From IMG/VR virus record IMGVR_UViG_3300033074_002123, positions 62,001 to 126,000 of that record: a DNA stretch of 64,000 bases; one strand, given 5' to 3'. Positions 6,231 through 25,557 of this stretch are shown here, piece by piece. The translations under genes and the position numbers were made by a program. Each line of letters begins with the position of its first letter. Position 1 is the stretch's first letter. The notes beneath the pieces are model-generated. The model searched no databases and was not told the origin of the DNA. It saw nothing but the letters and a program-made list of their open reading frames with translations. Origin of the DNA: an uncultured virus (IMG/VR IMGVR_UViG_3300033074_002123) (Duplodnaviria; Heunggongvirae; Uroviricota; Caudoviricetes).

Positions 6231-6231
6231 A

Positions 6232-8544: not shown

Positions 8545-8558
8545 GATTTTTTTAAGTT

Positions 8559-9101
8559 TTATTGTTTTGTACCTATTGGATTGAATTTTTTAACTAGCAT
8601 ATCATTTATCTTACCTTCAATAATCTCATGCTCAAACTCTTCAGGTTTTAAGAATTGAGAAAGGTTGTCCAATTTTTTATCTTTACTCTGTAAAGCCCAA
8701 TATAAAGAATCAATTAAAGATTTATTATAAGCTAATTTATCCATTTTTCTTCTATGAGCAAGATAAACTTCATCTTGAACTAAAGCAGAATCAATTTGAG
8801 CTATAGTGGGAGATTTTCCTAAAACTTTAGTAAGTTCCTCTCTATGAGAATCAGTTAACTTAGCAGCTAAAACATCAAAATCAAGTTTAGCTCCATTTAT
8901 TTCATTCTCTAATTCAGCCTTCAAATTACCTACTCTATTTAATAAAGTAGAAATTGTTACTATTTCTCCATAAATATTCTCATAATGAATTTTAGTTAAA
9001 TCATCAACATCAATTTCATCAAAATCCCTATAAGAAATAGTAATAATTTTAGACCCTAAGTCAATTTTTACTACCTTTAGTGTAGTTTCTTCTGTTGTCA
9101 T
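8559..9101 (-). CDS. Putative UvsY-like recombination mediator
   Basis: Helical ~180 aa protein with PTIAQIDSAL...YL pattern; position between polymerase and SSB-like gene. Confidence 0.5.
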   Translation of the reverse strand: MTTEETTLKVVKIDLGSKIITISYRDFDEIDVDDLTKIHYENIYGEIVTISTLLNRVGNLKAELENEINGAKLDFDVLAAKLTDSHREELTKVLGKSPTIAQIDSALVQDEVYLAHRRKMDKLAYNKSLIDSLYWALQSKDKKLDNLSQFLKPEEFEHEIIEGKINDMLVKKFNPIGTKQ

Positions 9102-9152
9102 AATAATATCAAGTTTTTCTGAATTTTATATACGATTTTTAATCCTTTTCAA

Positions 9153-9184
9153 TAAAATTAATAAAAGCCGAAAACCTTTCCAAG
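9153..9184 (-). promoter_or_regulatory. Bacteroidota-type promoter CTTG-N20-TAATTTTA
   Basis: Same 20-nt spacing as five other intergenic copies. Confidence 0.65.
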
Positions 9185-9207
9185 TATAAAGTTTAGAAAA
9201 GAGCACT

Positions 9208-12200
9208 TTATAAAATAGTTAACTTTGAATATTTATCAGTTTGTAAAACCATTTGTAGTTGAAAATCATTGTAAGTAATTTTACCACTAATAAATATAAC
9301 CTTACCTAAAGCATTTAAAGCCATTTCTTTATATTTAGGAAATATTTCTTGCCACCACAAATAAGCAATAGTTAATTCTTCATTAGTATTAATAGTTAAT
9401 TCAGCAAAAGGACCCTTTGTTTTACTAGACCTTTCTATAATATCAACAACTACTCCAGCCAAAATTACATCTTTACCTGAATTTTTTCTTTTCTTAAAAT
9501 GTAAAGGGTCTATTAATTCTGTTTTTAATCCCTTAAACAAAGCAATATCTTCCAAAACTAAATTATAATCAATGTGACTAAGACCAGAAACTTCTTTTTG
9601 TTTTAATTGCCAATAATATATTTTATTTATTTGAGCTAAATCAACAATATCTTTAAGAGATTCCTTAGGAATAATAGCAATATCATAATATTGTTGAAGT
9701 AATTTATATCTTTCTGTTGGAGAAGTAAGCTCTTCTAATTTATCAAAAGCTCCTGCTATAATAAGATTTTCAACTATTCTTTTAGTAACTTTAACATCAT
9801 TATCAACCATTCTTTTGTAAAATTCCTCAAAAGAAAAATATTGACCATGATTATTAAAATCTTCCATTAATGAAGCAGCAGCAACTGGTCCCAACCCCTT
9901 TATTCCTAATAAAGACCAATACATTGTTTTATTTTCAAAATCCATAAAAAAATAGTCTTTTGAAAAATTAATATCAATAGAAGCTATTTTAATTTCTGGA
10001 TTTATTCTTCTCATTTCAGATAAAAACAAAGGTATTTGGTCATCATCTTTTCTAAATTGAAAAGCTATAGTCCAAAATTGCATGGGATAATAAACCTTTA
10101 ACCACTGCCCTATATAACCCATTAAAGTATAAGCAGCAGCATGAGATTTATTAAAACCATAACTGGCAAATCTTCTTAATTTATCCCAAATCTTTTCAGC
10201 CTCATCAATAGAACAACCTTTCCTATGAGCACTATTAATAAATTGGTCTTTATAAGAATCCAACAATTCTTGTTTCATTCTACCCATTGCTTTTCTAATA
10301 TCATCTGCTTCAGCTAAGGTAAAATCTCCTAAAACTTGAACTGCTTGCATTACTTGTTCTTGATAAATATAAAGCCCATAAGTTTCTTTAGTTACTTCTT
10401 TTAATCCAAAATCATATTCAGGCTTCTTTCTACCAAACTTAATTTCAACATAATCTTCATTAGCTCCTGATTGTAAACCACCAGGTCTAATTAAAGCAAT
10501 CATAGCTATAAGTTCATTTATATCATTTGGTTGGATTTCTCTTGACATTTTTTTCAAACCTTCTGAACCAAAATGAAATATATCTGAATTGTAACCTTTT
10601 CTAAATAAAGCTAAAACTTTTTCATCATTAAGAGGTAAATTATAAATATCAATCTTATCTCCTGTTGTTTTTTCAATCAAATTCAAAATAGCCTTAAATT
10701 TGTCTAACATTTTTAAACCTAAAATATCTTCTTTCAAAAATCCAGCATCAGATAATTCTGTTCCTTCCCATTCAGAAACTAAAACATTTTCTTCTTTTCT
10801 TACTGGTATCCAACTATAAATATCTTTATATTCTTTTGTTGAATCTATCTTAGGTAAAATTAAAGTAGCACAAGCATGAATAGAAGCAGATTTAGGTTGA
10901 CCCAATATTAAATGAATATCATTAACAATTTCAACATGTTCTTTCAAAAAGTTTTTAACCGCCCCATTTATAACAGCATTTCTAAACAAATCTTTCCAAT
11001 CATCTTCAAAATCTCTTAAAATAGTAGTAATAAAATTAACTTTAGAAAATTCTACTCCAGCATTTCTAGATAAATCTTTTAAAGCCTGTTTAATTTGAAA
11101 TGTAGTATAAGTACCAACAGAACAAACATAATCTTCACCATATTTAGATTCCATATATCTCTTAATATCTTCCCTTCTTTCCCCTTCAAAATCTAAATCT
11201 ATGTCTGGTAAGCTTTTCCCAATTCTACCTTCATTCAAAAATCTTTCAAACAATAATCCATAATCTAAAGGATTAAGTTTAATTATGCCTAATAAATAAG
11301 AAACTAAACTTCCTCCAGCACTTCCTCTACCAACACCTACTAAAATGTTGTTTTCATCACAATATCTAATAATGTCCCACAGAATTAAAAAATAATCAAT
11401 AAATTCCCCTTTCTTTATAATCTCAATTTCCTTATCTAATCTATTATACCAAATTTCTGCTTCTTTATCTGTCCCTTTAAATTTTGTTTTAAATCCCTTT
11501 TCTAATAAATAATAAAATAAATCTTCATTGCTTTCCAATTGAAGATATTCTCCTCCTAAAGTAGATTTATCAAAATTTGGTAAATTAAAGTGAACAGTAT
11601 CAATTAAAAACTGAGAAAGATGATTTAATAAAGCAGCATTACTAATAGCCTTATCCAAAAAATCAAAAAACTTATCTTTATCTGGAAATAAAGAATCAAA
11701 AATAACAAAATTCTCATCTAAAGATTTAAAATGTTGGCTCTCAGCTTCATTATAGTGACCTTCTTTGCCAATTTCTTTTAATTTTTTCCTAATATAAGCA
11801 TCTTCTTTATCTAAATAATAAGCATCATTAATAAGAATAGGCTCTAATTGAGAAGAAAAATGATTAAAATAATGTTTAAGGGCTAAAAGATAATCCATAT
11901 CTTTCTTATCATTTTTATACTCAACAGTATCTATTTGGTAAAACACTAAATCAAATATTTGTTTAAAAGCTAAAATTTTAGTTTCTGTTAAAGGATATTC
12001 ACTATTAATAATAAAAGCCAATCCTTCCCCATAAGAAACAAGTTCTGGTTCTTCTATATATTTTTCCTTTCTATCAACATTAACTTTTTTATTAAGGGCT
12101 AACAAGTTTTTCCAACCTATTTTATTCAAAACATAAAATTTACAATCAAAAAGTTTATCCTTAACTTTAATTGAATAAGTAGCCCCTAAAATGGATTTAA

Positions 12201-12711: not shown

Positions 12712-13135
12712 TAATCCATTTATTTTTTACACTTTCATAATAAGATGTAGTGACAGGTAAACGACCTAAAAGTAAATTTTCTGGAAATTCATTAGTTAAA
12801 AAGAAAACTACCATATCTTTTTTAGTCTTAAACCCTTTCTTTAAAGCAAATTCAATCCTTTGAATAAAATCTTCTTCAGTAGGTGAATAATTATTAAAAG
12901 AAATTTCTTTTTTTAATTTAGCTAAATCCTCTACAGATAATTTAGAAGTAGTTTCATTTCTCCAATCATAATCAAAGGTTTTTATACCTCTTCTAATAGA
13001 CAGATAAAATTCTTCTACTTCTTCTTTAGGTACACCAAAAAGTTTTCCATAAACTGTCACCATCTCAGAAAGAGACATATAAACACAATCTTTCTTAACT
13101 TGAAGATGGTTCCAATCTATTGTAGTAGTGACCAT
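12692..13135 (-). CDS. Hypothetical protein
   Basis: 147 aa ORF coupled to queC by a TAATG overlap. Confidence 0.65.
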   Translation of the reverse strand: MVTTTIDWNHLQVKKDCVYMSLSEMVTVYGKLFGVPKEEVEEFYLSIRRGIKTFDYDWRNETTSKLSVEDLAKLKKEISFNNYSPTEEDFIQRIEFALKKGFKTKKDMVVFFLTNEFPENLLLGRLPVTTSYYESVKNKWINGTLDD

Positions 13136-13935
13136 TATTTTTTACTATCAAGTATTTCTTTAACAGAAGCTACAATTTCTTCCCAAGGTTTAATATAAGG
13201 AACTGGGTCCTTTATTCCTACTTCAATAAAAGCCTCTACTCTTTCAACACAAGAACCACATTTTCCACAACTTTGACCCAACAAATTGGGATTATAACAA
13301 GTATTAGTATTTCTCAATACAGTCATAAGACTAATATTAAGAATAGCACAATTTTTAATTAAATCTTGTAAAATAGTAATTTTGTTAAGTTTCAAATAAG
13401 GTAAATATAACTTAACTTTTTGACTATCCCAATTTCCACTAGCAAAAGCTGCATAAATTTGATTATAAAATTGTGGAGTACAATCAGGATAAATAGCATG
13501 GTCTCCTGAATGAACTCCTAAACTTAACTTAACAGAATTAGTAATATGAAACTTATTAGCTAAAGATAAAGCATAACCATATAAAATAGAAGAAAATATA
13601 GCATTTCTATTAGGGACTACTGTTTGTTTCATATTTTCTTCTTGATAATGACCTTCTGGGATAGCTTCTCCTCCCTTTAATAAATTAGAATGAAATAGGT
13701 CAGCTATAAAAGATAAATCTAATTTCTTAAAAAAGAATTGACCATTGGTAGGGAGATGGGCTGCTAACATATCCAAATTTTTACTTAATCTAACTAATTC
13801 AACATTATGCTTCTGACCATAATCAAAACTAACAGCATAAGTCTTATAACCTTTAGTTAATAAGTGAATAAAAAGAGAAGTAGAATCTAATCCACCAGAT
13901 AAACTAAGTACAGCAAATTTTTGTTCAGTAGACAT
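13135..13935 (-). CDS. queC: 7-cyano-7-deazaguanine (preQ0) synthase
   Basis: SLSGGLDS PP-loop, FDYGQKH, VPNRN, YPDC, TCY...CGKCGSC zinc site. Confidence 0.97.
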   Translation of the reverse strand: MSTEQKFAVLSLSGGLDSTSLFIHLLTKGYKTYAVSFDYGQKHNVELVRLSKNLDMLAAHLPTNGQFFFKKLDLSFIADLFHSNLLKGGEAIPEGHYQEENMKQTVVPNRNAIFSSILYGYALSLANKFHITNSVKLSLGVHSGDHAIYPDCTPQFYNQIYAAFASGNWDSQKVKLYLPYLKLNKITILQDLIKNCAILNISLMTVLRNTNTCYNPNLLGQSCGKCGSCVERVEAFIEVGIKDPVPYIKPWEEIVASVKEILDSKK

Positions 13936-13937
13936 AT

Positions 13938-14534
13938 CTATTTATTTTTAAGTTCAACTAATTTACTTTGACAAACTATAGAAAAATCAGTTAATCTTTC
14001 AGCCACAGTCCCTTTCAAAGTAATAAAAGGAACCTTAAACATATCAGTCAAATACCAATAAATAATTTCATCTATCTTTTGTCTATATTCAGCATTTTCA
14101 CTTCTTACTCCATCCCCAACCAACTCAATATCAGAAGCAGGAAAATAAAAAATTAAGTCATATTTTTTTATATAACGTAAAGTAAGAAAAATTTGCTGAG
14201 AAAGAATAAATTTTTCATTCTCAGCAAAATTTCCATTGTGATAAGCCCAATGAGTATAAGAAAGAGCATCTATTAATCCCCTATCTGTAACAAAATCTTC
14301 TACTAAAAGTAAATTTTTAACAATCTCATTAAAAATAAGGATTTGAGAATCAAAATTAGTTTTTTCATTAATGGCTACATTTTGTCTATTAAATCCTCTG
14401 ACTAATTCAGTAAGAAAAGAATGGTTTTTAAGAAAGTTCAAATCTTTATCCCCCATACTTTCAGAGTGTCCTTTTATAGCCTCTAATAAAGTAGATTTCC
14501 CTGTAGATTGAGTGCCAGTAAAACAAATTTTCAT
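13938..14534 (-). CDS. P-loop nucleoside/nucleotide kinase-like protein
   Basis: GTQSTGKST Walker A, DRGLID motif, DGVR lid. Confidence 0.8.
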   Translation of the reverse strand: MKICFTGTQSTGKSTLLEAIKGHSESMGDKDLNFLKNHSFLTELVRGFNRQNVAINEKTNFDSQILIFNEIVKNLLLVEDFVTDRGLIDALSYTHWAYHNGNFAENEKFILSQQIFLTLRYIKKYDLIFYFPASDIELVGDGVRSENAEYRQKIDEIIYWYLTDMFKVPFITLKGTVAERLTDFSIVCQSKLVELKNK

Positions 14535-15808
14535 AAAGTAAATTTTTCAGTTGCAATTAAACCAGAAACTGCACTAGGTACTATTCCTCTAGTCCCCACA
14601 CAACTATCTCCTACCCAAGTAACATTAGGAAATTGACCACTTTTCAAAGTAAAATCTTCTTTAACATCTAAAACTCCCAAACTTACCTTCACTTCAGGGA
14701 ACCAAATCATGTAGTTATTATCTAATTCTAAAATTTTATTCAATTCATCAACAAAAGTATTAAAAGTTTCCCTTAAAGGAGTAGGGAAAGGATTTTTTCC
14801 ACATAAAACTTTAGGAATACTTTTATCTAAAGGAATATTTTCTCCAGTTAACTTTAAACTAGAAAAGAAATGATAGTTATTACCAAAATAAACACTATTT
14901 TTAGCTAAATCTAAATATTTTTGTTGTTCTAATTCTAAATTATCAACATAAAAGCTAGCTAAAACTCCAAAATTAGACAAATTGTTAGTCATTTGGGGTG
15001 TTTGTTCAGAATAACCATGGCCATTATATTGGACCCTCCCATCAACATATTCTTGTACTACATAAGCTCTTTTATTGTTAGCACAAAAAGTCCTCATTTC
15101 AATAGGACCATATTGTTTAACAAACTTAAAATCATGTTGAATAGCAGCAATTTCTTCAATTTTTGGAGTTAAGATAGTTTCAAATCTCCCTCCTATATGA
15201 AGTTTATTAGGCAAAAGATTAAAATTATATAAAGTAGAAAGTTTTTTAACAGTATTAGCACCAGCTTTACCTAACCCTATTTGAAGATAATCATAATCAA
15301 GTTTCTCACCTGTTTCTGTAACTAAAAAATTGTTTTCTAAATCAAAATGAACAACTTTAGTATTAAACTTAAATTTAACCCCATATTGAGAAAGGTAGTT
15401 ATAAATAGCTATACCTAAACCTTTATTATTATCAGACCCAATATGAACAATATGAGATTGTCTTAAAGGTAAACCAAAATTAGCTTCTTTATTAATAGGA
15501 AACTCTTTAATATATTCAGGTGAAGGATGAAATGTTTTAAGAATACCTAAAATAAAATCATGATATTTAGTTTTGTCTTTTGGATAAGGTTGAACAATAT
15601 CTGGATAGTTAGAAAAAACATATTTACCATCACTCCAAAAACCTGCCCCCCCAAACCCATATAAAAGGTTATCTTCTTTTCTTGCTTCAGGGTCAGGTCC
15701 TTGGTCAACAACAAGAATATCATCAAGAAAAATGTCACAACTAATCAAACTAAGAGCTGCAAACAAATTACTAGGACCAAAACCAACTAAAATAATTTTT
15801 TTACTCAT
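14531..15808 (-). CDS. FAD-dependent oxidoreductase
   Basis: Rossmann start ILVGFGPSN, GFGGAGFWSDGK, RTFC, NGH, C-terminal VGDS..TRGIV.SA.SG. Confidence 0.85.
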   Translation of the reverse strand: MSKKIILVGFGPSNLFAALSLISCDIFLDDILVVDQGPDPEARKEDNLLYGFGGAGFWSDGKYVFSNYPDIVQPYPKDKTKYHDFILGILKTFHPSPEYIKEFPINKEANFGLPLRQSHIVHIGSDNNKGLGIAIYNYLSQYGVKFKFNTKVVHFDLENNFLVTETGEKLDYDYLQIGLGKAGANTVKKLSTLYNFNLLPNKLHIGGRFETILTPKIEEIAAIQHDFKFVKQYGPIEMRTFCANNKRAYVVQEYVDGRVQYNGHGYSEQTPQMTNNLSNFGVLASFYVDNLELEQQKYLDLAKNSVYFGNNYHFFSSLKLTGENIPLDKSIPKVLCGKNPFPTPLRETFNTFVDELNKILELDNNYMIWFPEVKVSLGVLDVKEDFTLKSGQFPNVTWVGDSCVGTRGIVPSAVSGLIATEKFTL

Positions 15809-16625
15809 TTAATATTTTTCGAAATTTAGCAATGTTAAATAATATTTTTTGAATAAGAATAGAATCCTTATTAAATTGTAAATGCATCATATCATCAAGT
15901 AAAAGATTAGGTTTATCTTGAATAACTTCAAAAGAAATTTCTTTTTCAAAGTAACCTAATTTTACAGGTAAAGAAGTATCAAAAGATTTTATATAAGAAA
16001 AATTCTTATTATTATACCAAACAAATTCTTGAGCTCCTCCTCCCCCTAACAAATGTAAAGGAATATCTGGATTAAAAAAAGGTAAATTAACTAATTTAGT
16101 AATTAAATTATATCTACCTAACATTTGATTAAAAGAAGGATAAGGACTTAAAGCTCCTTTTTGAAAGAAATTATAACCAAAAGAAATAGCTATTTTACCT
16201 AAAGGATAATTTCTATGGAAAAGAGCATAAGATAAATAACAATATTCAAACTCAGATAAAGTATCACCTTGTAAAACAACTATAGGTTTAGCTTTAATTT
16301 TTTCTTTTTTAATTATTTCTACCCACTCATAGAAGCTTTCTAATGTTTTGTTTGAATCACACCAAACATCAGGAACAACAAAATAAGTAGGGTTAAGGTC
16401 TTTAATATATTTGATAAATTTTTCTGTATCAAAAGCTGCTTTAAGTTCAAATAAAGAGTTATCTAAAATAACTTCTCTACCAGCACTTACCATTCTTTTA
16501 AAAAAATCATAATAAGTAGGGTAAGATTCAAATAAATGAACTAAAGCATAATCATAATCATTAAAAGAAATACTAGTCTCCAATAAACAAGGAGGTACTT
16601 CATGGCTTATACTCAAATGTGTCAT
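15801..16625 (-). CDS. dpdA: DpdA/tRNA-guanine-transglycosylase-fold protein (putative DNA base-exchange enzyme)
   Basis: TGT-barrel motif order ILDNS, VVPDV, VVLQG, LHLLG, SFDTS; embedded among que genes. Confidence 0.75.
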   Translation of the reverse strand: MTHLSISHEVPPCLLETSISFNDYDYALVHLFESYPTYYDFFKRMVSAGREVILDNSLFELKAAFDTEKFIKYIKDLNPTYFVVPDVWCDSNKTLESFYEWVEIIKKEKIKAKPIVVLQGDTLSEFEYCYLSYALFHRNYPLGKIAISFGYNFFQKGALSPYPSFNQMLGRYNLITKLVNLPFFNPDIPLHLLGGGGAQEFVWYNNKNFSYIKSFDTSLPVKLGYFEKEISFEVIQDKPNLLLDDMMHLQFNKDSILIQKILFNIAKFRKILNE

Positions 16626-16636
16626 AAATCAAATTT

Positions 16637-17572
16637 TTAGTACATTCTATCAACAGCAAATTTAGCTCCCTTACTTCTATATTTCTTTTCTGTTACAACT
16701 TCAATTGGGTAGTTATATTTAAGTTTAAGCAATTCTAAACTTTCAATATAAGGTGAAAATTCAATAAAACTAATAATATGTTCCCATTTCTTACCCTTCA
16801 AAAAGTGTTCTAATAATTTATGTACTCTCCAAATATCTGGAACACCAGCAGAATATTTAAGAATTAAGGGATGAGACCAAAACTCTTCAGGTACTATCCC
16901 TATATTTGAAACAACAATTTTGTGATAGTCAGGATTGTTAAAATAACTTGAAAAAAGGTCATTTTCTCTAAATTGAAGTTGACCTCCACTATAATAAGGC
17001 CTTGTTTTAGTACAAGGTAATAAAATAGCCTTCTTTTTTATTTTTTTATATTTTTGAACCTCAACATTAAACTCTAAAACATAATCTCTACCATAACTTT
17101 GCCAAGAGTTTTGATAAATAGGGTTAGAATCTTCTGGGAAAGGGTCTTTTTTAATTTTGCTGTGGTCTATTTGATATAAAACATCAGCAAAATGCATTGA
17201 AGCAGAACTAACCATTTCAACAAAATCCCTCAATAAACCTCTTTCCTTAGCCCAAATACACCAATCATTTAACTCATATTGATTAAGCAAAGTTAAAGGA
17301 TTATCTAATTTAGGAAAGATTATAGATTCTAAATCAACTTTAAACCCCAAATAAATAGCTAAAGGAATTTCATTAAAAGGCAAATTAGTTATAGTATATT
17401 CAGAATAATCAGTATCTTTACCTAATTCTTGAAATATCATAAACCAATAAATCCCTAAATTTTTATAGAGATTTTCCCACATACTAGAAATAGCTTTCCC
17501 TGTACCTAGGCTGACTTTACCTGTTTGCCCTCCTTTTATAGGGGCATAATCTATAATCTTTCCTGAAATCAT
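16637..17572 (-). CDS. ArcS-like (archaeosine synthase/DUF5591-type domain) protein
   Basis: LLPCTKTRPYYS resembles the ArcS PC-x3-KPY-x2-S motif, followed by VVSNIGIVPEEF...Y; adjacent to dpdA-like gene. Confidence 0.65.
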   Translation of the reverse strand: MISGKIIDYAPIKGGQTGKVSLGTGKAISSMWENLYKNLGIYWFMIFQELGKDTDYSEYTITNLPFNEIPLAIYLGFKVDLESIIFPKLDNPLTLLNQYELNDWCIWAKERGLLRDFVEMVSSASMHFADVLYQIDHSKIKKDPFPEDSNPIYQNSWQSYGRDYVLEFNVEVQKYKKIKKKAILLPCTKTRPYYSGGQLQFRENDLFSSYFNNPDYHKIVVSNIGIVPEEFWSHPLILKYSAGVPDIWRVHKLLEHFLKGKKWEHIISFIEFSPYIESLELLKLKYNYPIEVVTEKKYRSKGAKFAVDRMY

Positions 17573-17575
17573 AAG

Positions 17576-17932
17576 TTAAAGAGATTTAACAATTTCATTT
17601 ATTTCAGACCACTTAACCTCAAAAAGAACAGCAATCTTGTATTGAGGTAATTTAAGTTTAAATAGCTCAACAACTTTTTCTTTATAAGGGAGACTTCCCT
17701 CATAAATAGCTTTTTGTTCAGCAGTCAACTCAGTAATAAACTGGTCTTTCTTAATAAAAAATTGTTTAGATTTTTCAGAAGAAGTATAATGTTTAGAAGC
17801 CTTAAGCTTAGCTAAAATTTCTTCCGACTTTGGAGTAGCTGAAAAAGTAATGCCTAAATTCTTGGCATAATTTCTCAAATCTTTGTAGGAAAGTTGTTCA
17901 ACTTCTTCCCACTTAAGAATAGATGTTTCCAT
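17576..17932 (-). CDS. Small putative nucleic-acid-binding protein
   Basis: N-terminal LSYKDLRNYAKNLGI (Rho-N/HeH-like) and C-terminal HTH-like QYKIAVLFEVKWSEINEIV; has its own promoter. Confidence 0.55.
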   Translation of the reverse strand: METSILKWEEVEQLSYKDLRNYAKNLGITFSATPKSEEILAKLKASKHYTSSEKSKQFFIKKDQFITELTAEQKAIYEGSLPYKEKVVELFKLKLPQYKIAVLFEVKWSEINEIVKSL

Positions 17933-17971
17933 GTTGTCAATTTTACAATTAAAATATAATTTACATTAATA

Positions 17972-18003
17972 TAAATTTATGAAATTTTGCAAGAAAAAAC
18001 AAA
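17972..18003 (-). promoter_or_regulatory. Bacteroidota-type promoter TTTG-N20-TAAATTTA
   Basis: Intergenic, exact 20-nt spacer, TTCA immediately before the -7 box as in other copies. Confidence 0.75.
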
Positions 18004-18050
18004 TTAAAGAACCTCATAAAAAAAACCAACTAAAACAGCCTTTTGAATAT

Positions 18051-18686
18051 TTACCTGTTATCTCCTGACCCCCCAATCTTACCTTCTTCAGCTCTTTTAG
18101 CTAACTTTTTAACATTGGTATCAAGAATAAAAGATAAATCGAAATTAAACCAAACAACAATAGTAACAAGAGTTACAAAAATAATTTTAAAATGGCCAAA
18201 TATTTTTTCTGTTTTTTCTTCTGAAGGTTCAAAACTAATTTCATTCCCTATACCATTGCCATGTTGAGGCAATTCATCTCTTAATATCTTTTTAGTAGTT
18301 TCTGAAATTTTACAAGCTTCAATTGATAAAACAAATAAAAGTGTTTCAAGTTCTTCAGGTCTTGTTGGGTCAATTTTAAAAACAAAAGTTTCAGGGTCAA
18401 AATTAACTACTTCTTCAAAATCTTTGCCATATTCATCACAAAGACAAGCCAAATACCAAAAAACATCTCCAATTTCTTTAATCAAATCTAGTTCTATTTC
18501 TTCTTTACAAGCAAAAGAAAATATAGAATTATCAAAAATAATCTCTTCTGTTTTTTTATATTTAAGAATTTTTTCAATAACTTCCCCCATTTCCCCACTT
18601 AAACCTAAGGTAGGATAACTATAACAATGATTAGGAGGGTAAATTTTGGTATGAATAGCTGCTTTTTGATAATCAGATAAGTTCAT
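18051..18686 (-). CDS. mazG: MazG-like nucleotide pyrophosphohydrolase
   Basis: LGLSGEMGEVIE and KEIGDVFWY ExxE...ExxD motifs; C-terminal NVKKL..R...GSGDNR. Confidence 0.88.
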   Translation of the reverse strand: MNLSDYQKAAIHTKIYPPNHCYSYPTLGLSGEMGEVIEKILKYKKTEEIIFDNSIFSFACKEEIELDLIKEIGDVFWYLACLCDEYGKDFEEVVNFDPETFVFKIDPTRPEELETLLFVLSIEACKISETTKKILRDELPQHGNGIGNEISFEPSEEKTEKIFGHFKIIFVTLVTIVVWFNFDLSFILDTNVKKLAKRAEEGKIGGSGDNR

Positions 18687-18698
18687 AAGATTTAATTT

Positions 18699-19667
18699 TT
18701 AATAAGTGTTAGAGATACAATATAAACCACCCCCAAGTTGATAAAGTTTAGATAAAACATCATCTTCCCAAGGAATCAAATTAACATATTCAGGGGTTAC
18801 TTCTCTTATTTTTTCAAAAGCTAACCAACTTGAAGAAGAAAAAATAGGAAAAATGACATTATTTCCTACTATAATAAAATCTAAAATGTTTCCTGTATAA
18901 TCTTCCTGCCCACTATAAAGCAGTTTTTTCCCAGAAAGTTCATTAGGTAAACCAACTATTTCTAATCCAATATCATATTTTATTTTATACAAAATATCAT
19001 AAAGATTTTCATCTACTTTATTATTAAAAATACTATAAAGATAGTACTCATCATAATAATGTCTTAAGAAAATATCAGTATGACCTAAAACAGATCTAGA
19101 TTTAAGTTGATAAACTAATTTAACCCCAAAAATTTCCTTTAATAAAGAAATAATTTTATCTTCACTATATTTTGGGTTATCGGTAAAAATTTTATCAGTA
19201 ACAATAATAAATTTATTAGAGTAAAATTCAAAATTCCCTCCATCCAACTTCAAAGGAACTTTATAAACAGGTAATTTTAACTTTTCTTGATAAATGGTTT
19301 TTCCACATAAAGAATCATTTACTGAAGCTGTATAATGAAATTGAACTCCAATTTGTTTATATTTAGCTGTTTTAGCTAAAAAAGGTATCCAATCCCCTGC
19401 CCAAATATCTGTTACTTTAGGATAAAAGAAGAATTTTTGTTTACGTCTTTTAGCAAAATTTTCTAAAATTTCAGTCCTATATTCTTCTTTTTTAATTATC
19501 CAAAAAATTTCAATATCTAAAGGAATAATATAACTATAAGCTTTATAAAAAGCAAGTAAATCCTCAATATATTGTTTTTTGTATTGTAAACCTTTTGGAT
19601 AAACTAAAAAAATCCCACTAGAAAGAAAATCTTCAGAATAAATTTTAATTGGTAAAGGGACAACCAT
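18699..19667 (-). CDS. Agmatine-deiminase-like (pentein fold) protein
   Basis: DIWAGD, LDGGNF, GHTD, GGGLYC catalytic-motif order. Confidence 0.8.
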   Translation of the reverse strand: MVVPLPIKIYSEDFLSSGIFLVYPKGLQYKKQYIEDLLAFYKAYSYIIPLDIEIFWIIKKEEYRTEILENFAKRRKQKFFFYPKVTDIWAGDWIPFLAKTAKYKQIGVQFHYTASVNDSLCGKTIYQEKLKLPVYKVPLKLDGGNFEFYSNKFIIVTDKIFTDNPKYSEDKIISLLKEIFGVKLVYQLKSRSVLGHTDIFLRHYYDEYYLYSIFNNKVDENLYDILYKIKYDIGLEIVGLPNELSGKKLLYSGQEDYTGNILDFIIVGNNVIFPIFSSSSWLAFEKIREVTPEYVNLIPWEDDVLSKLYQLGGGLYCISNTY

Positions 19668-19670
19668 AAA

Positions 19671-20396
19671 TTAAGCAACAATTTTTACAATAGGATCAAT
19701 ACCAGCTTTAACTACTCTTCCAACTTTTTCACAAAACTCAAATTCAAAATCATCACTTAAAGGCAAAACAAAGCTAACTTGACTTCCATACCTAATTTGC
19801 CCTAAGTCTTTATTCTGAATAACATAATCACCTTCTTCAGGGTAATGAACAATATTGCTAACTTCATAATCAGCAATATTAATTAAGTAATATTCATGAC
19901 CAAAAAGCTTAGGCATTCTAACAGTTATAACTGCTCTTTCATTAGTAAAAGCAAAACCATATTTGTTTAAATCAATAATTCCTTCAATTAAATCATTTTC
20001 AGCAAACAACATAGGTCTGTTATTACTTGTAATAGGACCAACTTTATCACAACTTACAATACCACTATAAGGTAATTTGGTATAGTGAATATTATAATAA
20101 GTTAAAAAGATATCAACAATCATATAATAATTGCCTTCTCCCTTAAACCAAGGGTCCATAAAAGCATCCTTCAAATTATATTTCATTCCTTTAATTTCCA
20201 TTAAAGGTTCATCTGCCTTAACAATAGCTTGATTAATGATAACACCATCAGCTGGACTGTAAAAAACATCATCATCAATATAACGAGGTCTTAATTCATT
20301 TCTAAAAAAGACCATTTCAGCTATTTCCCTTTTGGAATATTTAGCCTTAATAGGCTGAACTTCCTTTTCTATCCATTCTTGAAGAGATAAAGACAT
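19671..20396 (-). CDS. Phosphatidylserine-decarboxylase-fold pyruvoyl-dependent decarboxylase
   Basis: FFRN..R, SPADG, IFLTYYNIH, NER, YGSQ autocleavage site; no obvious membrane anchor. Confidence 0.82.
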   Translation of the reverse strand: MSLSLQEWIEKEVQPIKAKYSKREIAEMVFFRNELRPRYIDDDVFYSPADGVIINQAIVKADEPLMEIKGMKYNLKDAFMDPWFKGEGNYYMIVDIFLTYYNIHYTKLPYSGIVSCDKVGPITSNNRPMLFAENDLIEGIIDLNKYGFAFTNERAVITVRMPKLFGHEYYLINIADYEVSNIVHYPEEGDYVIQNKDLGQIRYGSQVSFVLPLSDDFEFEFCEKVGRVVKAGIDPIVKIVA

Positions 20397-20408
20397 ATAA
20401 TTTCCTCC

Positions 20409-21377
20409 TTAAACCATATCAAGTTTGAAACTAAAATGATTCAAATTCATAACTAAACAAGACATATCAGCTCCTCCTTTATAAAATTCACTGATATTAA
20501 CAAAAACAGGTTCTAAATCTAAATGGATACAAATATCCTCTAATAATCTATTCTTTCCCATTTCAATTTCCCAAGATTCACTACCTGGTTCTTCTTCCTG
20601 AATACAAGATTCAGCAATTAAACTATCATAGTATCTAACAACACTACAACCACCATATTCAGCATACTTTAGAGGTATTTCAATTAAATTAATATAGCCT
20701 TCTAAAGTCTTTATGTCTTCTTTAGAAAAACTAGAAAGACAACACAAAGCATCTTCTCTAGTTACAGGTAAAAAATTAACATCTAAGTGATAAAGATAAT
20801 TGTTAGTAGGACTAACTTTAATAATTTTAATCCCAAATTTTTCTTCCATCCACTCATATGTTTTGATATCACTTCTTTGTCCATATCCACCAACATAAAG
20901 TTTAGGACCTATTTTTTTCAATTCAGCATCTCCTTCAAACTTAAAAGGAGCAACATGGGTTTCAAAACCCAAATTCTCAAAAAACCTTTTTCCTACTTCA
21001 GTTTCTCCTTGCCTATTAGGTACAGTAAAGTTAGAAACAACTACAATATCTTTATCAAAATCATCAAGAACCACTCCTAAATTAGAAGTAAAAACTAAAT
21101 CTTGTAAATATTTTTGTGGAGTAGGGGCTAAATAAACTAAACCCTGAGAAGCAAAAAAGTTATAAAGGGTTAGCCATTGATTCAGAGCTCTTCCCCTATC
21201 AACTTCTCTTTCAGCTTCAGTTTGTTTTTCCATTGATAAATTATTGGGAATTTTGGCATCAAACCCAATTGGGGGAGACATAACTATAGCTGGTAAATCC
21301 AAGTCTTTAATCAAATACCTGTCTTCTACCAAGGGATTGGATTCATTTTGAGTTGTAAGTAGATTAACCTTTTTCAT
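20409..21377 (-). CDS. Amidinotransferase/dimethylargininase-fold (pentein) protein
   Basis: DLVFTSN, R.GE, FEGDAE, YHLD, EF.KGG...SCL catalytic His/Asp/Cys pattern. Confidence 0.85.
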   Translation of the reverse strand: MKKVNLLTTQNESNPLVEDRYLIKDLDLPAIVMSPPIGFDAKIPNNLSMEKQTEAEREVDRGRALNQWLTLYNFFASQGLVYLAPTPQKYLQDLVFTSNLGVVLDDFDKDIVVVSNFTVPNRQGETEVGKRFFENLGFETHVAPFKFEGDAELKKIGPKLYVGGYGQRSDIKTYEWMEEKFGIKIIKVSPTNNYLYHLDVNFLPVTREDALCCLSSFSKEDIKTLEGYINLIEIPLKYAEYGGCSVVRYYDSLIAESCIQEEEPGSESWEIEMGKNRLLEDICIHLDLEPVFVNISEFYKGGADMSCLVMNLNHFSFKLDMV

Positions 21378-21401
21378 TTTATAATTAAATTTTAAGTTAG
21401 T

Positions 21402-22442
21402 TTACCAGTTTAATATATAAGCAAACATTAAAGGAGCTACAATAGTAGCATCTGATTCAATAATAAATTTAGGTGAATGTCCACCTAATTTTCCCCAGGT
21501 AATTTTTTCATTTGGAACTGCTCCTGAATAAGAACCATAACTTGTAGTAGAATCAGAAATTTGACAAAAATACCCCCACATTGGAACTTCAGTAAATTTG
21601 CCTCCACTATAAGGGACTAAATCTTGATTAATACAAGGAACAGAACAAATTGTAAAGTCTCCAGCTATGCCACCCCCTATTTGAAAGAACCCTATTTCAG
21701 CAAAATCTTTTGTTTGAGAAGTATACCATTTAAGTAATTCTTCCATATATTCAATCCCACCTTTAACAACATAATTAGCAAAATCTCCATTAACTTTACA
21801 AGAAGCATAAATATTACCTAAAGTAGAATCTTCCCATCCTGGAACAAAAATAGGAATACCTTTTTCTTTAGCAGCTACAAGCCAACTATTTTCTAAAGGT
21901 ATTTCATATTCTTCATTAGGAATAATTTTTTCATCTAACAATTGGTAAAGAAATTCATGAGGAAAGAACTTTTGGTTATTGTCACTTGCCTTTTTCCATA
22001 AATCAAGTAAAGCTCTAGAAATCTTAGTCATAGCTTCTTCTTCAGGTATACAAGTATCTGTTACTCTATTTCTTCCAGCCTTAGCTAAAGCTACCTCATC
22101 AGCTACTGATAAAGCTCTCCAATCTTTAATTCTGTAGTAATGAGAATGAGCCACTAAATTAAAAATGTCTTCTTCCAAATTAGCTCCAGTACAAGTAATA
22201 GCATGAACTTTATCTTGCCTAATCATCTCAGCTAAACTTATACCCAATTCAGCAGTAGACATAGCACCAGCTAAGGTTATTAATATTTTATTATTTTCTG
22301 TCTCAATAAATTGCTTATAAGCTTCAGCAGCTTCAACTAAAGTTGCAGCATTAAAGTGAAGAAAATGAGTCACCAAAAAATTACTAATTGGTCTACCTTC
22401 AACTATCTTAGTTGAGGGACCTTTGTAAGTAGATTTATTCAT
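21402..22442 (-). CDS. Deoxyhypusine-synthase-like (homospermidine-synthesis) NAD-dependent aminobutyltransferase
   Basis: LAGAMST, TGANLEED, PGWEDST, IGGG, GSYSGAVPNEKITWGK (catalytic Lys), SDATIVAP. Confidence 0.93.
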   Translation of the reverse strand: MNKSTYKGPSTKIVEGRPISNFLVTHFLHFNAATLVEAAEAYKQFIETENNKILITLAGAMSTAELGISLAEMIRQDKVHAITCTGANLEEDIFNLVAHSHYYRIKDWRALSVADEVALAKAGRNRVTDTCIPEEEAMTKISRALLDLWKKASDNNQKFFPHEFLYQLLDEKIIPNEEYEIPLENSWLVAAKEKGIPIFVPGWEDSTLGNIYASCKVNGDFANYVVKGGIEYMEELLKWYTSQTKDFAEIGFFQIGGGIAGDFTICSVPCINQDLVPYSGGKFTEVPMWGYFCQISDSTTSYGSYSGAVPNEKITWGKLGGHSPKFIIESDATIVAPLMFAYILNW

Positions 22443-23505
22443 TTTTATTTAATTTAGATAACAAAGTATATTCAGACAACAATTGTAAAATCCTAGCTCC
22501 TACATTACCATCCCACTCTTCTTCACTTCCAACTTCAACTAAGTCAAAACCAATTATATTAAAATTAATACTTAACTGGTTAAGAATAAATTGAGTTTTA
22601 CCAAAATTAATCCCACCAGGAACAGGAGTACCTGTACCAGGACATAAAGAAGGGTCTAAAACATCTATATCAAAAGTAATATAAATATTTTTAATCCCTC
22701 TTTCTTTAAAAATATAAATAGTTTCACCCAACTTAGAATTAAAGTCTCCTTGTTCAGTAAATAAATCATCATATTCTGGGTGAGTATAAAGGTAAGTTGG
22801 AATTAAAGTGGTATGATTTTGAATAAAATCAGATTCTGCTTTATCATAATCCCTAGCTCCTATTTGAAAATAAGCTCCTATTTTGTTTGAAATAACTTCA
22901 GACTTAAAAACATTATACATAATTGAAGCATGAGAATAATCAAATTTTAAGTAAGCTTCTCTAGCATCAAAATGAGCATCAAAATGAATTAAACCAAAAG
23001 TTTCTTTCTGAAATTTAGCATGAGCTCTTAAAGCTCCAAAAATAACTGAATGGTCTCCTCCAATGATTCCAACTACTTTACCTTTTTCTAAATATGAAGT
23101 AACTACATTTTCTACCTCCATATTTATTTCAGAACACCTCTTGTTTAAGTCAAATAAAACTTTTTGGAACTTAGGTAATAAAGGTTTGTCTGGATTATCA
23201 TAAGACCAAGTTAAATAATGGTCTATTAAAGCTCTCCATCTTTCATTTTCTTCAGCTAACTCAGGTAAATTAGGTAAATCTTCTATCATAAAAACTTTGC
23301 CATCTTTAGTAACACTTTTTCCATGAACAGTTTCAAAAAACCCAAAATCTACTTGTTCAGCCATATCAAAAATGTTTTCAGGTCCCATATAGGTACCTGG
23401 TTCTCCAGATACTGTTGTATCCCAAGTTACAGGAATTAAAATAATTTCAGCAACTTCTTCAGAAGTTTTAGTAACTCCAAAAATATTATAATCTAATTTC
23501 TCCAT
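22435..23505 (-). CDS. speB: Agmatinase (ureohydrolase family)
   Basis: GGDHS, DAHFD, SHAS, DIDVLDP..PGTGTP.PGG, DLVEV. Confidence 0.92.
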   Translation of the reverse strand: MEKLDYNIFGVTKTSEEVAEIILIPVTWDTTVSGEPGTYMGPENIFDMAEQVDFGFFETVHGKSVTKDGKVFMIEDLPNLPELAEENERWRALIDHYLTWSYDNPDKPLLPKFQKVLFDLNKRCSEINMEVENVVTSYLEKGKVVGIIGGDHSVIFGALRAHAKFQKETFGLIHFDAHFDAREAYLKFDYSHASIMYNVFKSEVISNKIGAYFQIGARDYDKAESDFIQNHTTLIPTYLYTHPEYDDLFTEQGDFNSKLGETIYIFKERGIKNIYITFDIDVLDPSLCPGTGTPVPGGINFGKTQFILNQLSINFNIIGFDLVEVGSEEEWDGNVGARILQLLSEYTLLSKLNKNE

Positions 23506-23506
23506 T

Positions 23507-24109
23507 TTATTGATGATTTACTGTTTTTATATAATCAAAAAATTCTAATCTAGCTAAATTCTCATTTTCCAAAAAAGCCCCACTAAGCTCAGCTGTTTGA
23601 GTCATAGTATTTTGGTTTACTCCTCTCATGAAAATACAAAGGTGTTTAGCTTTAATTACAACAGCTACCCCTCTATTATCTCCAATTAAAGCACTTACAT
23701 AATCATGAATTTCCTTAGTTAAGTTTTCTTGTACTTGAGGTCTACGAGCAAAATAGTTGACCATTCTATTTAATTTAGAAAGACCAACTATTTTCTTCCC
23801 TTTTAAGGGAATATAAGCAACATGTGCTACACCAAAAAATGGCATGTGGTGATGAGCACACATTGATTTTACCTCTATATTACCTTGAAAAACTAATCCA
23901 TCATAGTTACCTGTATTTTCAAAAACAGTTACTTTAGGAGCAGGCAAATGAAGTCCTTGAAACAATTCTTGAAGAAACATTTTAGCTACTCTTTTGGGAG
24001 TATCAACACTATTGGCATCTTCTTTCCATCCTGGACAAACAACATCCATAAACTCAGCATACTTAGTTTCTGCTGCACTTAAAATTAAATCAAAATCCGT
24101 CTTTATCAT
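23507..24109 (-). CDS. folE: GTP cyclohydrolase I
   Basis: TPKRVAKM, SMCAHH, GLSKL.R, RPQVQE.LT, HLC..MRG. Confidence 0.97.
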   Translation of the reverse strand: MIKTDFDLILSAAETKYAEFMDVVCPGWKEDANSVDTPKRVAKMFLQELFQGLHLPAPKVTVFENTGNYDGLVFQGNIEVKSMCAHHHMPFFGVAHVAYIPLKGKKIVGLSKLNRMVNYFARRPQVQENLTKEIHDYVSALIGDNRGVAVVIKAKHLCIFMRGVNQNTMTQTAELSGAFLENENLARLEFFDYIKTVNHQ

Positions 24110-24113
24110 AAGC

Positions 24114-24145
24114 TAAAATTATGAAAATGGTTAATTAAAAACAAA
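24114..24145 (-). promoter_or_regulatory. Bacteroidota-type promoter TTTG-N20-TAATTTTA upstream of folE
   Basis: Exact 20-nt spacer; the -7 box ends 4 nt before the folE ATG. Confidence 0.72.
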
Positions 24146-24163
24146 TCTTTTTTTAAAAAGAGT

Positions 24164-24925: not shown

Positions 24926-25557
24926 AAAATTTGTTGTTCAGGTTTATTATAAATAAATTTAACTTTACTTTTTATTTTATCCCACATAAAATAATCTTTC
25001 CATTCTTTTTTTACCCCTTCACTAAAAATAATGTGGTTAATTGCTTTTTCTGCTGCTGAAGATTCAATTCCACATTGACAACTTTTCATTATTAATTTAT
25101 TCAAAACATATAAATCATCACTAGATGCTTCAGCATAACCAGTATCTGTTTCATGTACTCTGACAGCAGTTAAATGAATTTCATCTTCACCATTATTAAA
25201 TTCAGTATTATCAAGTATTTCATCAATAATAGCATAAAATAAAATAGATAAAGCTTCAGCACTTACATTAACAGGTAATTCTACCCATCTTAAACTGTTT
25301 TCTTTAACAAACTTCTTAAAATCTTCAGATTCTAAAGTCCAAAAAGCCCAACTGTGGTCAAAAGAATCAATAAATTCTTTAATTTGATTTTTCAAAACAC
25401 CAAAATCTAAAACCATATGAGCCTTATCTAAAGAAATAGAAGAAAGAAATATTTCTACAACATAACTATGCCCATGAATAGAATATTTACATCTGTCAGA
25501 ATAACAATTTCTAACTACATGAGCACCTTCAAATTTAAAAAGTTTTCTAATTATCAT
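24922..25557 (-). CDS. queD: 6-carboxy-5,6,7,8-tetrahydropterin synthase
   Basis: FEGAH...C...IHGHSY, VLDFG.LK, FDH, SAE, VHET. Confidence 0.93.
   Translation of the reverse strand: MIIRKLFKFEGAHVVRNCYSDRCKYSIHGHSYVVEIFLSSISLDKAHMVLDFGVLKNQIKEFIDSFDHSWAFWTLESEDFKKFVKENSLRWVELPVNVSAEALSILFYAIIDEILDNTEFNNGEDEIHLTAVRVHETDTGYAEASSDDLYVLNKLIMKSCQCGIESSAAEKAINHIIFSEGVKKEWKDYFMWDKIKSKVKFIYNKPEQQIL

Follow-up and report, generated by a model that had tools for sequence, protein, structure and literature searches.

The stretch of DNA analysed here, called the window throughout, comprises 64,000 nucleotides (bases 62001-126000) of the IMG/VR virus record IMGVR_UViG_3300033074_002123 (Caudoviricetes), a complete phage genome of 130,392 bases with direct terminal repeats. 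Two adjacent minus-strand genes, 11 bases apart, encode a 274-amino-acid (aa) DpdA3-type 7-deazaguanine transglycosylase with the barrel of tRNA-guanine transglycosylases (TGT; 15801..16625) and a 311-aa truncated ArcS (16637..17572), which is composed of a remnant TGT-like N-domain and the C1 domain and has neither C2 nor PUA. On balance, we regard the ArcS-like protein as a likely amidine-forming tailoring enzyme acting downstream of DpdA3. The phage DNA probably carries an amidine-type deazaguanine, possibly a new one.

DpdA3 and viral ArcS2 as such have already been described (PMC10516641). New are their combination, an ArcS clade without the motif His and Ser that keeps half of the TGT-like domain, and a DpdA3 with an altered pocket stretch, located in a deazaguanine module together with a polyamine pathway. 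A preliminary description of the sequence had proposed the two neighbours as a probable writer pair of DpdA-like and divergent ArcS-like type. The position of both genes and both family assignments were confirmed, and the pair lies inside a full preQ0 pathway; lack of a structural match to TGT or ArcS folds, which it had named as grounds for dropping the proposal, was not observed, and Foldseek searches matched both.

DpdA3-type transglycosylase

Pfam (E 0.01) and NCBIfam searches with the 274-aa protein were empty, including for the TGT model PF01702. Its only cysteines are C13, C89 and C129; none follows residue 129, and the CxCxxC...H zinc cluster is absent. Thus, neither the Pfam match nor the C-terminal zinc site of bacterial and archaeal TGT proper was found. 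The AlphaFold2 (AF2) model, computed from a 38-row alignment, reached a predicted local distance difference test (pLDDT) score of 93.3 and a predicted template modelling (pTM) score of 0.91. Foldseek against the PDB returned 199 matches at E <= 0.001, of which the best 50 were all tRNA-guanine transglycosylases (best E 2.1e-7, probability 1.0, TM 0.56-0.59). With VIA-align, 236 of the 274 residues were superposed on the catalytic domain of P. horikoshii ArcTGT (1iq8; Z 18.1, root mean square deviation (rmsd) 3.1 Å), and Z. mobilis TGT was aligned with Z ~17.5.

A tblastn search of 50,697 phage records matched 25 of them. Fourteen are from Campylobacter phages (CP220, CP21 and relatives; 36-37.6% identity over 97-99%), with CP220 gp056 at 37.5% over 99% (E 1e-29). 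Four Flavobacterium immuto phages were matched at 35% over 99%, their gene being annotated 'DNA guanine transglycosylase, DpdA' (immuto_2-6A gp206: 35.2% over 99%, E 3e-35), and five Cellulophaga records (phiST, phi13:1, phi19:2) at 24% (phiST: 24.4% over 84%, E 5e-5). The family phrog_19058 was matched at E 4e-37. CP220, immuto_2-6A and phiST are named DpdA3 phages, and the subfamily is tied to complete replacement of G (PMC10516641). It is large: 449 proteins were retrieved at E <= 0.001, and no fewer than 559 stretches of IMG/VR contain a member.

The preliminary description had noted DNS in place of the usual DSG and the missing C-terminal Cys cluster as peculiarities of this protein. The letters are as described (LDNSLFEL, with D55-N56-S57 at 16455-16463, minus strand). 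Both features proved to be DpdA3 traits, LDNS.FEL being present in 114 of the 120 best homologues and also in CP220 and immuto DpdA3. Among 38 aligned homologues, D55, N56, S57, D86 and D216 are invariant, and no invariant Cys or His follows D216. D216 (15978-15980, minus strand), within FDTSLPVKLG, is the putative second catalytic Asp. The DpdA3 hallmarks LDNS.FEL, D86, HLLG and D216-x-S-x-P are all present, so that the protein belongs to DpdA3 by fold, homology, hallmark residues and its viral 7-deazaguanine gene context.

The stretch following D216 reads FDTS-LPVKLG, whereas all 80 IMG/VR loci that were compared (see below) read [NS]P...[GA]. Among the 120 best homologues, LP[VI]KLG was found in two, the protein's own cluster and its nearest relative P0011, and most others read [NS]P[IV][IV]H[GA]. 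Likewise, HLLGGGG replaces the HLLGC[GS]L of other DpdA3. A DpdA3 profile run against PDB sequences gave a non-significant match to bacterial DpdA (7ui4, E 1.4) that aligned HLLG...D-S-x-P; this is consistent with the region forming a wall of the active site. Within dpdA, 47 bases (16520-16566) that specify the invariant NDYDYALVHLFE region share ~96% identity with Campylobacter phages CP21, F379 and CJLB-12/13/14; this was the only megablast match of the 11-kilobase (kb) module.

Architecture and fold of the ArcS-like protein

The 311-aa protein was divided into an N-terminal region (residues 1-165; 17078..17572), which is a remnant of the ArcS TGT-like N-domain and holds R115, E119, D136 and R162, and the C1/DUF5591 catalytic domain (residues 166-297; 16682..17077), which contains the motif PCTKTRPYY (residues 186-194; 16991-17017), all on the minus strand. 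Pfam detected DUF5591 at residues 168-287 only (E 5e-6, 26.9 bits against a cut-off of 26), and NCBIfam ArcS NF040592 aligned residues 110-298 with model positions 221-417 of 575 (E 6.8e-8). PUA and TGT_C2 gave no Pfam match, and the protein therefore departs from the canonical Nt-C1-C2-PUA architecture.

Foldseek of the AF2 model against the PDB yielded AF0587 (2q07) as sole match at E <= 0.001 (E 6.8e-5). VIA-align against 48,161 chains superposed model residues 166-297 on the same structure (Z 10.7, rmsd 3.0 Å, 116 residues; next Z 5.3), and in BFVD the model matched a 320-aa viral protein (E 4e-9) and the DUF5591 protein of Vibrio phage nt-1 (E 2.7e-5). Since a profile of the close relatives reached 2q07 among PDB sequences at E 0.12 only, the relation to 2q07 rests on structure. 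Joint complex prediction of DpdA3 with the ArcS-like protein scored 0.02 against a mark of 0.32 and counts neither way.

The close family is tiny, with 9 proteins in 5.8 billion (35-53% identity, 57 invariant columns), and a profile search of 1.84 billion representatives retrieved 157 relatives at E <= 0.001. Because homologues exist for both paired genes (449 for the DpdA-like gene; 9 close ones and 157 profile matches for the ArcS-like gene), neither reading frame is a chance one. None of the ArcS-like relatives was found in the IMG/VR contigs or species genomes searched, and three metagenome loci were the only ones recovered. Most of the 157 are 270-320 aa long and match from query residue ~45 onward. 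Relatives of 520-670 aa with the canonical motif match from query residue ~104-108, corresponding to their own position ~225-300.

The preliminary description had left ~170 N-terminal residues unrecognised and suggested that they may bind DNA. Pfam indeed covers none of the first 167 residues. NCBIfam, the profile search, hhalign and an Atlas model do recognise them: hhalign paired residues 36-273 with the ArcS-like protein GR7B_00119 of Vibrio phage GR7B (probability 96.9%), and the Atlas model of residues 1-167, taken as a lead only, superposed on archaeal ArcS/ArcTGT proteins (TM 0.64-0.67, 7 of 10 rows), with the aligned part labelled TGT wherever it was labelled. Across 122 aligned sequences, canonical ArcS included, R115, E119, D136 and R162 are conserved to at least 86% in each of five classes (E119 and D136 to at least 90%), and P186, C187, P192, Y193, G225, P228 and Y240 to at least 93% in every class. 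From these results the N-terminal region belongs to the conserved ArcS core. The proposal of a DNA-binding module was given up, as residues ~104-168 align to canonical ArcS, carry conserved residues and superpose in TGT-like manner. Conservation of these positions across classes that include canonical ArcS argues for retained catalysis.

Motif departures and phylogeny of the ArcS-like clade

The ArcS consensus is PC-x3-KPY-x2-S-x2-H, as quoted in PMC10516641. The window's protein reads PCTKTRPYYSGG at residues 186-197, with Lys replaced by Arg, Ser by Gly and His by Leu; the full canonical motif is absent, PCTKTRPYYSGGQL having Arg for Lys and lacking both Ser and His. Motif classes were defined from the alignment of 122 relatives: long canonical ArcS (n=15, PCSAKKPYSxSKSH), short class B (n=25, PCSRRRPYxxSRTH), short class C (n=63, PCAADKPYPxPLH), the window's clade (n=9, PCTKxRPYY) and 10 miscellaneous sequences. 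Position 191 is Lys in long ArcS and class C (100% each) and Arg in class B (92%) and the window's clade (100%). The motif Ser at position 196 is found in 100% of long ArcS, 100% of class B and 55% of class C, and the motif His at position 199 in 100%, 96% and 93%, respectively; neither is conserved in the window's clade. Asp at position 241 (long ArcS 100%, class B 88%, class C 100%) is Ser in 55% of the clade.

Thus, the departures listed in the preliminary description, Lys to Arg and the missing His, were confirmed and extended by the loss of Ser. The exchange of Lys for Arg is not special, because class B carries Arg at 92%; it is the loss of Ser, His and Asp241 that is distinctive. A FastTree phylogeny of 253 columns, with long ArcS as root, recovered the window's clade as monophyletic (support 1.0). 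It is nested in a larger clade of 41 members (support 0.98) that consists mostly of class B, so that the loss is a derived state. Invariants particular to the window's clade are K189, Y194, N155, Y164, N223 and E271.

Clade members were also found in three metagenome loci (L002-L004), which share no neighbours with the window except the ArcS-like gene and QueC; the members in L003 and L004 keep the PCTKxRPYY motif. In L004, a 261-kb contig, positions 4230-11423 contain a GATase gene and QueC, followed by a second DUF5591 paralogue that lacks the Pro-Cys motif and, adjoining it, by the clade member, which lies 4 kb from QueC. Both in L003 (9962-11624) and in L004 the clade member is followed by a conserved protein of 195-236 aa with 34% mutual identity. 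As a candidate for DpdA3 this protein was rejected (hhalign probability 0.2%, no match to the DpdA3 hidden Markov model (HMM)). It may be a very divergent transglycosylase, a lead only, as its low-confidence Atlas model (pLDDT 0.57) resembles generic TIM barrels.

Comparison with other DpdA3 loci

From the at least 559 IMG/VR stretches with DpdA3, 80 loci (46 with at least 12 kb) were searched with the window's proteins and a general ArcS profile. An AAA_28 protein was encoded in 71 of the 80 loci, QueF in 67, FolE in 21, QueE in 20 and QueC in 19. The ArcS-like protein, the FAD-type protein encoded next to dpdA in the window and all of the five polyamine-block proteins were found in none (0/80 each). 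The window's AAA_28 P-loop protein (13938..14534, minus strand; Pfam AAA_28 E 8.4e-16) is homologous to the 'thymidylate kinase' genes adjoining DpdA3 in CP220 (E 5e-17) and immuto_2-6A (E 3e-13); in the reference loci these homologues are located at 8825-9367 (L005) and 9478-10002 (L006). The conserved pair is consequently DpdA3 with AAA_28 and not DpdA3 with the ArcS-like protein, which the preliminary description had taken for the probable writer pair. Absence of the AAA_28 companion could account for the failure of DpdA3 alone in E. coli.

Loci L017, L040/L042 and L081 are syntenic with the window from the terminase to DNA polymerase III alpha and p180. The backbone common to L017, L040 and L081 is TerL-DnaB-Toprim-p168-QueE-FolE-DpdA-QueC-PolIIIalpha-p180; QueD was found in each of them, and MazG in L017 and L040. 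In L081 (7334-9727) a CxxCxxCC (YkgJ/DpdM-like) gene lies upstream of dpdA and QueF directly downstream, a gene set (DpdM-like, DpdA3, QueF) from which methyl-preQ1 is predicted. L040 carries a dUTPase gene upstream of dpdA and QueF after AAA_28. The module of L017 (2467-7398) contains dGTP diphosphohydrolase and phosphoribosyltransferase genes and no QueF; an RRXRR/HNH gene and an IS605 OrfB/TnpB-like gene are inserted there beside QueD.

None of L017, L040 and L081 has an ArcS-like gene, an FAD-type gene or the five-gene polyamine block. Conversely, no homologue of QueF, the DpdM-like protein, GNAT or phosphoribosyltransferase was found in the window's genome. On the common backbone, the window shows three insertions: the polyamine block between FolE and MazG, the gene for the 118-aa protein (p118) together with the ArcS-like gene between MazG and dpdA, and the FAD-type gene directly after dpdA, in the slot of QueF in L081. 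Beside DpdA3, where related phages have QueF, this phage has the ArcS-like gene, and the tailoring chemistry appears swapped on an otherwise common backbone. QueF acts on the preQ0 nitrile through a Cys thioimide and turns it into the aminomethyl group of preQ1. The window's QueC is close to the QueC of the QueF-bearing L040 (E 1e-90) and L081 (E 2e-68), and most likely makes preQ0, because these kin sit with QueF, which needs the nitrile.

A further arrangement, DpdA3 - GNAT acetyltransferase - AAA_28 - QueF, was observed in L021 and L022 (8001-10830 in both); a GNAT homologue is present in 3 of the 80 loci. Judged from the gene order, it suggests that these phages carry N-acetylated preQ1.

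Proposed pathway

According to their family membership, FolE, QueD, QueE and QueC would make preQ0. DpdA3, whose fold and family are established above, would then exchange guanine for preQ0, its presumed substrate, probably together with the AAA_28 companion. By analogy with ArcS and nt-1 ArcS2, Cys187 of the ArcS-like protein would attack the nitrile of (deoxy)ribose-bound preQ0, and addition of a nitrogen nucleophile would give an amidine. The product would be 2'-deoxyarchaeosine (dG+) with ammonia as donor and an N-substituted dG+ with an amine.

T. kodakarensis ArcS is inactive on the free preQ0 base; it accepts the nucleoside and strongly prefers the 5'-monophosphate, and ArcTGT cannot exchange its product back (PMC11298593). 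The need of that enzyme for the nucleoside supports the order of DpdA3 before the ArcS-like protein, and a product that cannot be exchanged would also help to drive replacement to completion. Co-expression of nt-1 ArcS2 with DpdA2 yielded dG+ in E. coli (PMC10516641).

Several points weigh against this pathway. DpdA3 and an ArcS-like protein were seen paired in this one genome only and in none of the 80 IMG/VR loci; a second case is presumed on a Logan contig of 64,388 bases that appears to encode the nearest relatives of both proteins (P0002, 54%, and P0011, 44%). In the stretches searched of L002-L004, no DpdA3-HMM match was found with the clade relatives. The motif Ser and His are missing, the His being kept at 93-100% in the other three classes. 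The ArcS-like protein scores 31.6 bits against the 440-bit cut-off of NF040592, and its AF2 model, built on a 9-row alignment, is moderate (pLDDT 73.9). On the side of DpdA3, the altered stretch after D216 could mean that something other than preQ0 is inserted. Furthermore, Cui et al. were unable to obtain DpdA3 activity in E. coli and express doubt that DpdA3 inserts preQ0 in CP220 or phiST (PMC10516641).

Nitrogen donor and polyamine block

Known ArcS enzymes use Lys, with RaSEA cleaving the adduct, or ammonia, Gln or Asn (PMC11298593). A scan of the genome, which outside the window region covered 64 of the 87 open reading frames (ORFs) of at least 80 aa, turned up no RaSEA-like gene, the QueE-type protein being the only radical SAM match; whatever is added should hence stay on the base. 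As the clade has lost the motif Ser and His, the donor cannot be read from homology. We consider ammonia, giving dG+, quite possible and a polyamine or agmatine-type amine somewhat unlikely, the rest of the expectation falling to other outcomes. Within the amidine reading, we rate plain dG+ somewhat above an N-substituted amidine.

The arginine/agmatine/homospermidine block (18699..23505, minus strand) consists of five genes, encoding a PAD_porph (agmatine-iminohydrolase-like) protein (18699-19667), a PS-decarboxylase-like pyruvoyl enzyme (19671-20396), a DDAH/arginine-dihydrolase-like protein (20409-21377), a SpeY/deoxyhypusine-synthase family protein (21402-22442) and an agmatinase-family ureohydrolase (22435-23505). 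SpeY is 62-67% identical to bacterial SpeY and had no tblastn match in the 50,697 phage records, among which agmatinase homologues are also rare; a survey of viral polyamine genes gives one agmatinase homologue in phages (PMC9992855). Bacterial SpeY couples two agmatines to G44G, from which ureohydrolase or iminohydrolase leads towards homospermidine (PMC13625781). Judged by its similarity to the bacterial enzymes, the phage SpeY looks like a recently captured metabolic gene making free homospermidine. The DDAH/amidinotransferase-like and PS-decarboxylase-like genes (19671-21377) are direct neighbours here, as they are in Bacteroides phages DAC/SJC03. Both genes and that of the 425-aa dehydrogenase-like protein (14531-15808) also occur in Campylobacter Fletcherviruses, whose DNA contains deoxyinosine in place of dG (PMC13091555).

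The preliminary description had suggested that the altered residues may reflect an amine donor other than lysine or ammonia. Putrescine, agmatine, N1,N9-bis(guanidino)homospermidine or homospermidine from this adjacent block might serve the ArcS-like protein as amine, which would give a cationic N-alkyl-amidine 7-deazaguanine without RaSEA cleavage. Such a donor is possible, although somewhat unlikely, and the polyamine reading as a whole is to be taken as doubtful. ArcS chemistry does include addition of a primary amine, the Lys epsilon-NH2, to the nitrile (PMC11298593), and no enzyme other than QueE with a radical SAM match was found in the ORFs scanned. Set against the three syntenic relatives, the module has gained the ArcS-like gene, the FAD-type gene and the polyamine block; SpeY is without a match among the phage records, and the block is missing from the 80 DpdA3 loci. 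Ser, His and Asp, retained in the other ArcS classes irrespective of donor, are gone from the clade. On the other hand, the argument rests on adjacency in a single genome; in L003 and L004 the clade members retain the motif and no polyamine gene lies within 10 kb, though host polyamines could serve. Of the 120 best SpeY relatives, none lies on a contig with the 64,388-base length of the one presumed to carry the nearest ArcS-like and DpdA3 relatives, which is weak negative evidence only. The close identity of SpeY to ordinary bacterial SpeY and the occurrence of phage polyamine genes as stand-alone auxiliary genes (PMC9992855) likewise speak against a link. In the literature collection searched, none of the papers listed for 7-deazaguanine, phage and polyamine links deazaguanine with polyamines, judged by title and abstract. 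In its fullest form, this reading would have DpdA3 install preQ0, the His-less ArcS-like protein couple the nitrile to a polyamine or guanidino-amine and the FAD-type dehydrogenase possibly process the side chain; a novel base of this kind, a cationic polyamine-tethered 7-deazaguanine possibly replacing G genome-wide, is doubtful.

Other readings of the gene pair

The two proteins might act on the nucleotide pool and not as DNA writers: DpdA3, AAA_28 and MazG would build modified deoxynucleoside triphosphates, and the ArcS-like protein would work on a 5'-monophosphate, the form of preQ0 nucleoside on which ArcS is best (PMC11298593). Complete replacement of G in DpdA3 phages (PMC10516641), the AAA_28/'thymidylate kinase' companion of most DpdA3 loci, and the MazG, dGTP-diphosphohydrolase and phosphoribosyltransferase genes of related modules are in line with it. 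We hold it to be unlikely, as all characterised DpdA/TGT enzymes exchange bases in polynucleotides, DpdA presence is read by Cui et al. as a post-replicative event (PMC10516641), and no nucleotide-level DpdA activity is reported in the literature considered.

Hydration of the thioimidate by the ArcS-like protein, turning the nitrile into the amide (dADG) as in Campylobacter Firehammerviruses, is improbable. It would agree with the loss of the His, Ser and Asp of all aminating classes, with the relationship of the window's DpdA3 to that of CP220, whose DNA is fully dADG (PMC10516641), and with several module genes having their nearest homologues in Campylobacter phages. Yet no hydrating ArcS relative is known, and CP220, which is thought to make ADG by a QueC variant (PMC10516641), has no ArcS-like gene; tblastn with the ArcS-like protein matched 1 of the 50,697 phage records, a Vibrio phage. 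It is very improbable that the ArcS-like protein has degenerated into a non-catalytic relic or has a target with no relation to the phage's deazaguanine: its degenerate motif, a score far under the ArcS cut-off and relatives with no DpdA3 nearby stand against 57 invariant columns, including Cys187 and the canonical core residues, in a 9-member clade of 35-53% identity, tight packing of the gene among preQ0-pathway genes, and the L004 relative close to QueC and beside a second DUF5591 gene.

Relation to known systems

With known DpdA3 (PMC10516641) the window's copy shares a size of ~260-275 aa, the TGT barrel without zinc subdomain, LDNS.FEL, HLLG and D[TS]S.P, the AAA_28/'thymidylate kinase' companion and the surrounding deazaguanine synthesis genes. 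It differs by LPVKLG against [NS]P[IV][IV][HA]G, by HLLGGGG against HLLGC[GS]L, and by its partner, known DpdA3 being paired with QueF, DpdN or DpdL and this copy with an ArcS-like protein.

Like nt-1 ArcS2, the 311-aa protein is a short virus-encoded ArcS relative with C1 next to dpdA, as viral ArcS2 proteins are, and the predicted structures match (BFVD E 2.7e-5). Unlike it, nt-1 ArcS2 has 226 aa and works with DpdA2, not DpdA3 (PMC10516641). It was not detected by tblastn with either the 311-aa protein or the GR7B relative. The KPYP...H class keeps its His, and nt-1 is placed there only by the words 'slightly degenerated' used for it in PMC10516641.

Canonical ArcS (NF040592) has in common with the window's protein the C1 fold, the Pro-Cys...Pro-Tyr core and the equivalents of R115, E119, D136 and R162. 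It is longer, at 520-670 aa, and comprises a full N-domain, C2 and PUA, where the 311-aa protein has a remnant N-domain and C1; its substrate is tRNA, as against the DNA or deoxynucleotide presumed here. T. kodakarensis ArcS is a Lys-transferase operating with RaSEA, and the M. jannaschii enzyme depends on ammonia, Gln or Asn (PMC11298593). QueF (L040, L081, L021; 67 of the 80 loci) resembles the ArcS-like protein in lying within the module beside DpdA3, directly after it in L081; its fold is unrelated, and it performs a reduction to preQ1 instead of amidine formation. If the polyamine reading were right, alpha-putrescinylthymine and the other polyamine and amino-acid hypermodifications of thymidine would be functional analogues (PMC5889632). 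These concern a different base, are made by 5-hydroxymethyldeoxyuridine (5-hmdU) kinase/transferase routes and involve no deazapurine. In the literature collection searched, none of the papers listed for DpdA, archaeosine and phage since 2023 concerns, by title and abstract, a combination like that of the window's module; the supplementary tables of PMC10516641 list all viral homologues and could hold a related case.

The loci compared above amount to a natural swap experiment: on the same replication and deazaguanine backbone, two of the three syntenic relatives have QueF and the window has an ArcS-like gene. Phage DNA is known to contain eight 7-deazaguanine bases, and every further tailoring enzyme has brought a further base and another route past restriction. 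DpdA3 is the subfamily of full G replacement and has resisted reconstitution; the altered-pocket variant together with AAA_28 offers concrete constructs. With a polyamine donor, the product would be the first polyamine-bearing purine analogue in DNA and would give phage polyamine synthesis a new role. With plain dG+ as product, the motif Ser and His of ArcS would be dispensable and ArcS2 would be extended to DpdA3 systems.

Module layout and neighbouring genes

The window is AT-rich (GC 0.26-0.37), nearly all of its reading frames are on the minus strand, and no tRNA genes were found in it. The deazaguanine module occupies 12.4 kb (13135-25557, minus strand). In the order of transcription, terminase, DnaB-like helicase, Toprim primase-like and 168-aa proteins are followed by QueD, QueE and FolE, then by the agmatinase-family ureohydrolase, SpeY/deoxyhypusine-synthase family, DDAH/arginine-dihydrolase-like, PS-decarboxylase-like pyruvoyl and PAD_porph proteins, then by MazG, the 118-aa protein, the ArcS-like and DpdA-like proteins and the 425-aa dehydrogenase-like protein, and finally by the AAA_28 P-loop protein, QueC, a 147-aa protein and DNA polymerase III alpha. 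Spacing is operon-like; dpdA overlaps the gene of the 425-aa protein by 8 bases.

The full preQ0 pathway lies within 9 kb in the same operon-like run. Pfam and NCBIfam identified FolE (23507-24109), QueE (24164-24925) and QueD (24922-25557), which account for the initial three steps toward preQ0, and the preQ0 synthase QueC (13135..13935; Pfam QueC E 1.1e-42), all on the minus strand. Also on this strand, the 118-aa protein directly upstream of the ArcS-like gene (17576..17932) gave weak matches only, and no similarity to the gene upstream of the ArcS-like relative in L004. The MazG-like nucleotide pyrophosphohydrolase (18051..18686) matched Pfam MazG (E 4.6e-7) and phrog_229 (E 1e-21). The 425-aa NAD/FAD-type dehydrogenase-like protein, encoded immediately downstream of dpdA (14531..15808, minus strand), matched phrog_12409 'dehydrogenase' (E 2e-31), had no Pfam match, and by tblastn is 29% identical to a Campylobacter Fletchervirus 'NAD(FAD)-utilizing dehydrogenase'. 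Several other module genes also have their nearest phage homologues in Campylobacter phages.

ArcS-like genes in other phages

Two further phage loci with ArcS-like genes were inspected, neither of which gave a match to the DpdA3 HMM. The ArcS-like gene of Vibrio phage vB_VcorM_GR7B (L007, 8857-17412) encodes the same N-domain; after it come a pair of QueC-family genes, three genes of unknown function, a radical SAM gene resembling lysine-2,3-aminomutase and a GNAT gene. Judged by this gene content, the locus may direct a lysine-derived deazaguanine modification. In the jumbo Xanthomonas phage PhiXhv-12 (L008, 7881-13829), where no Que gene is annotated in the 16.6-kb stretch, an ArcS-like gene is located beside genes for a GlmS-like aminotransferase, a deacetylase and a glycosyltransferase, a neighbourhood suggesting that the ArcS C1 domain may serve a further purpose there.

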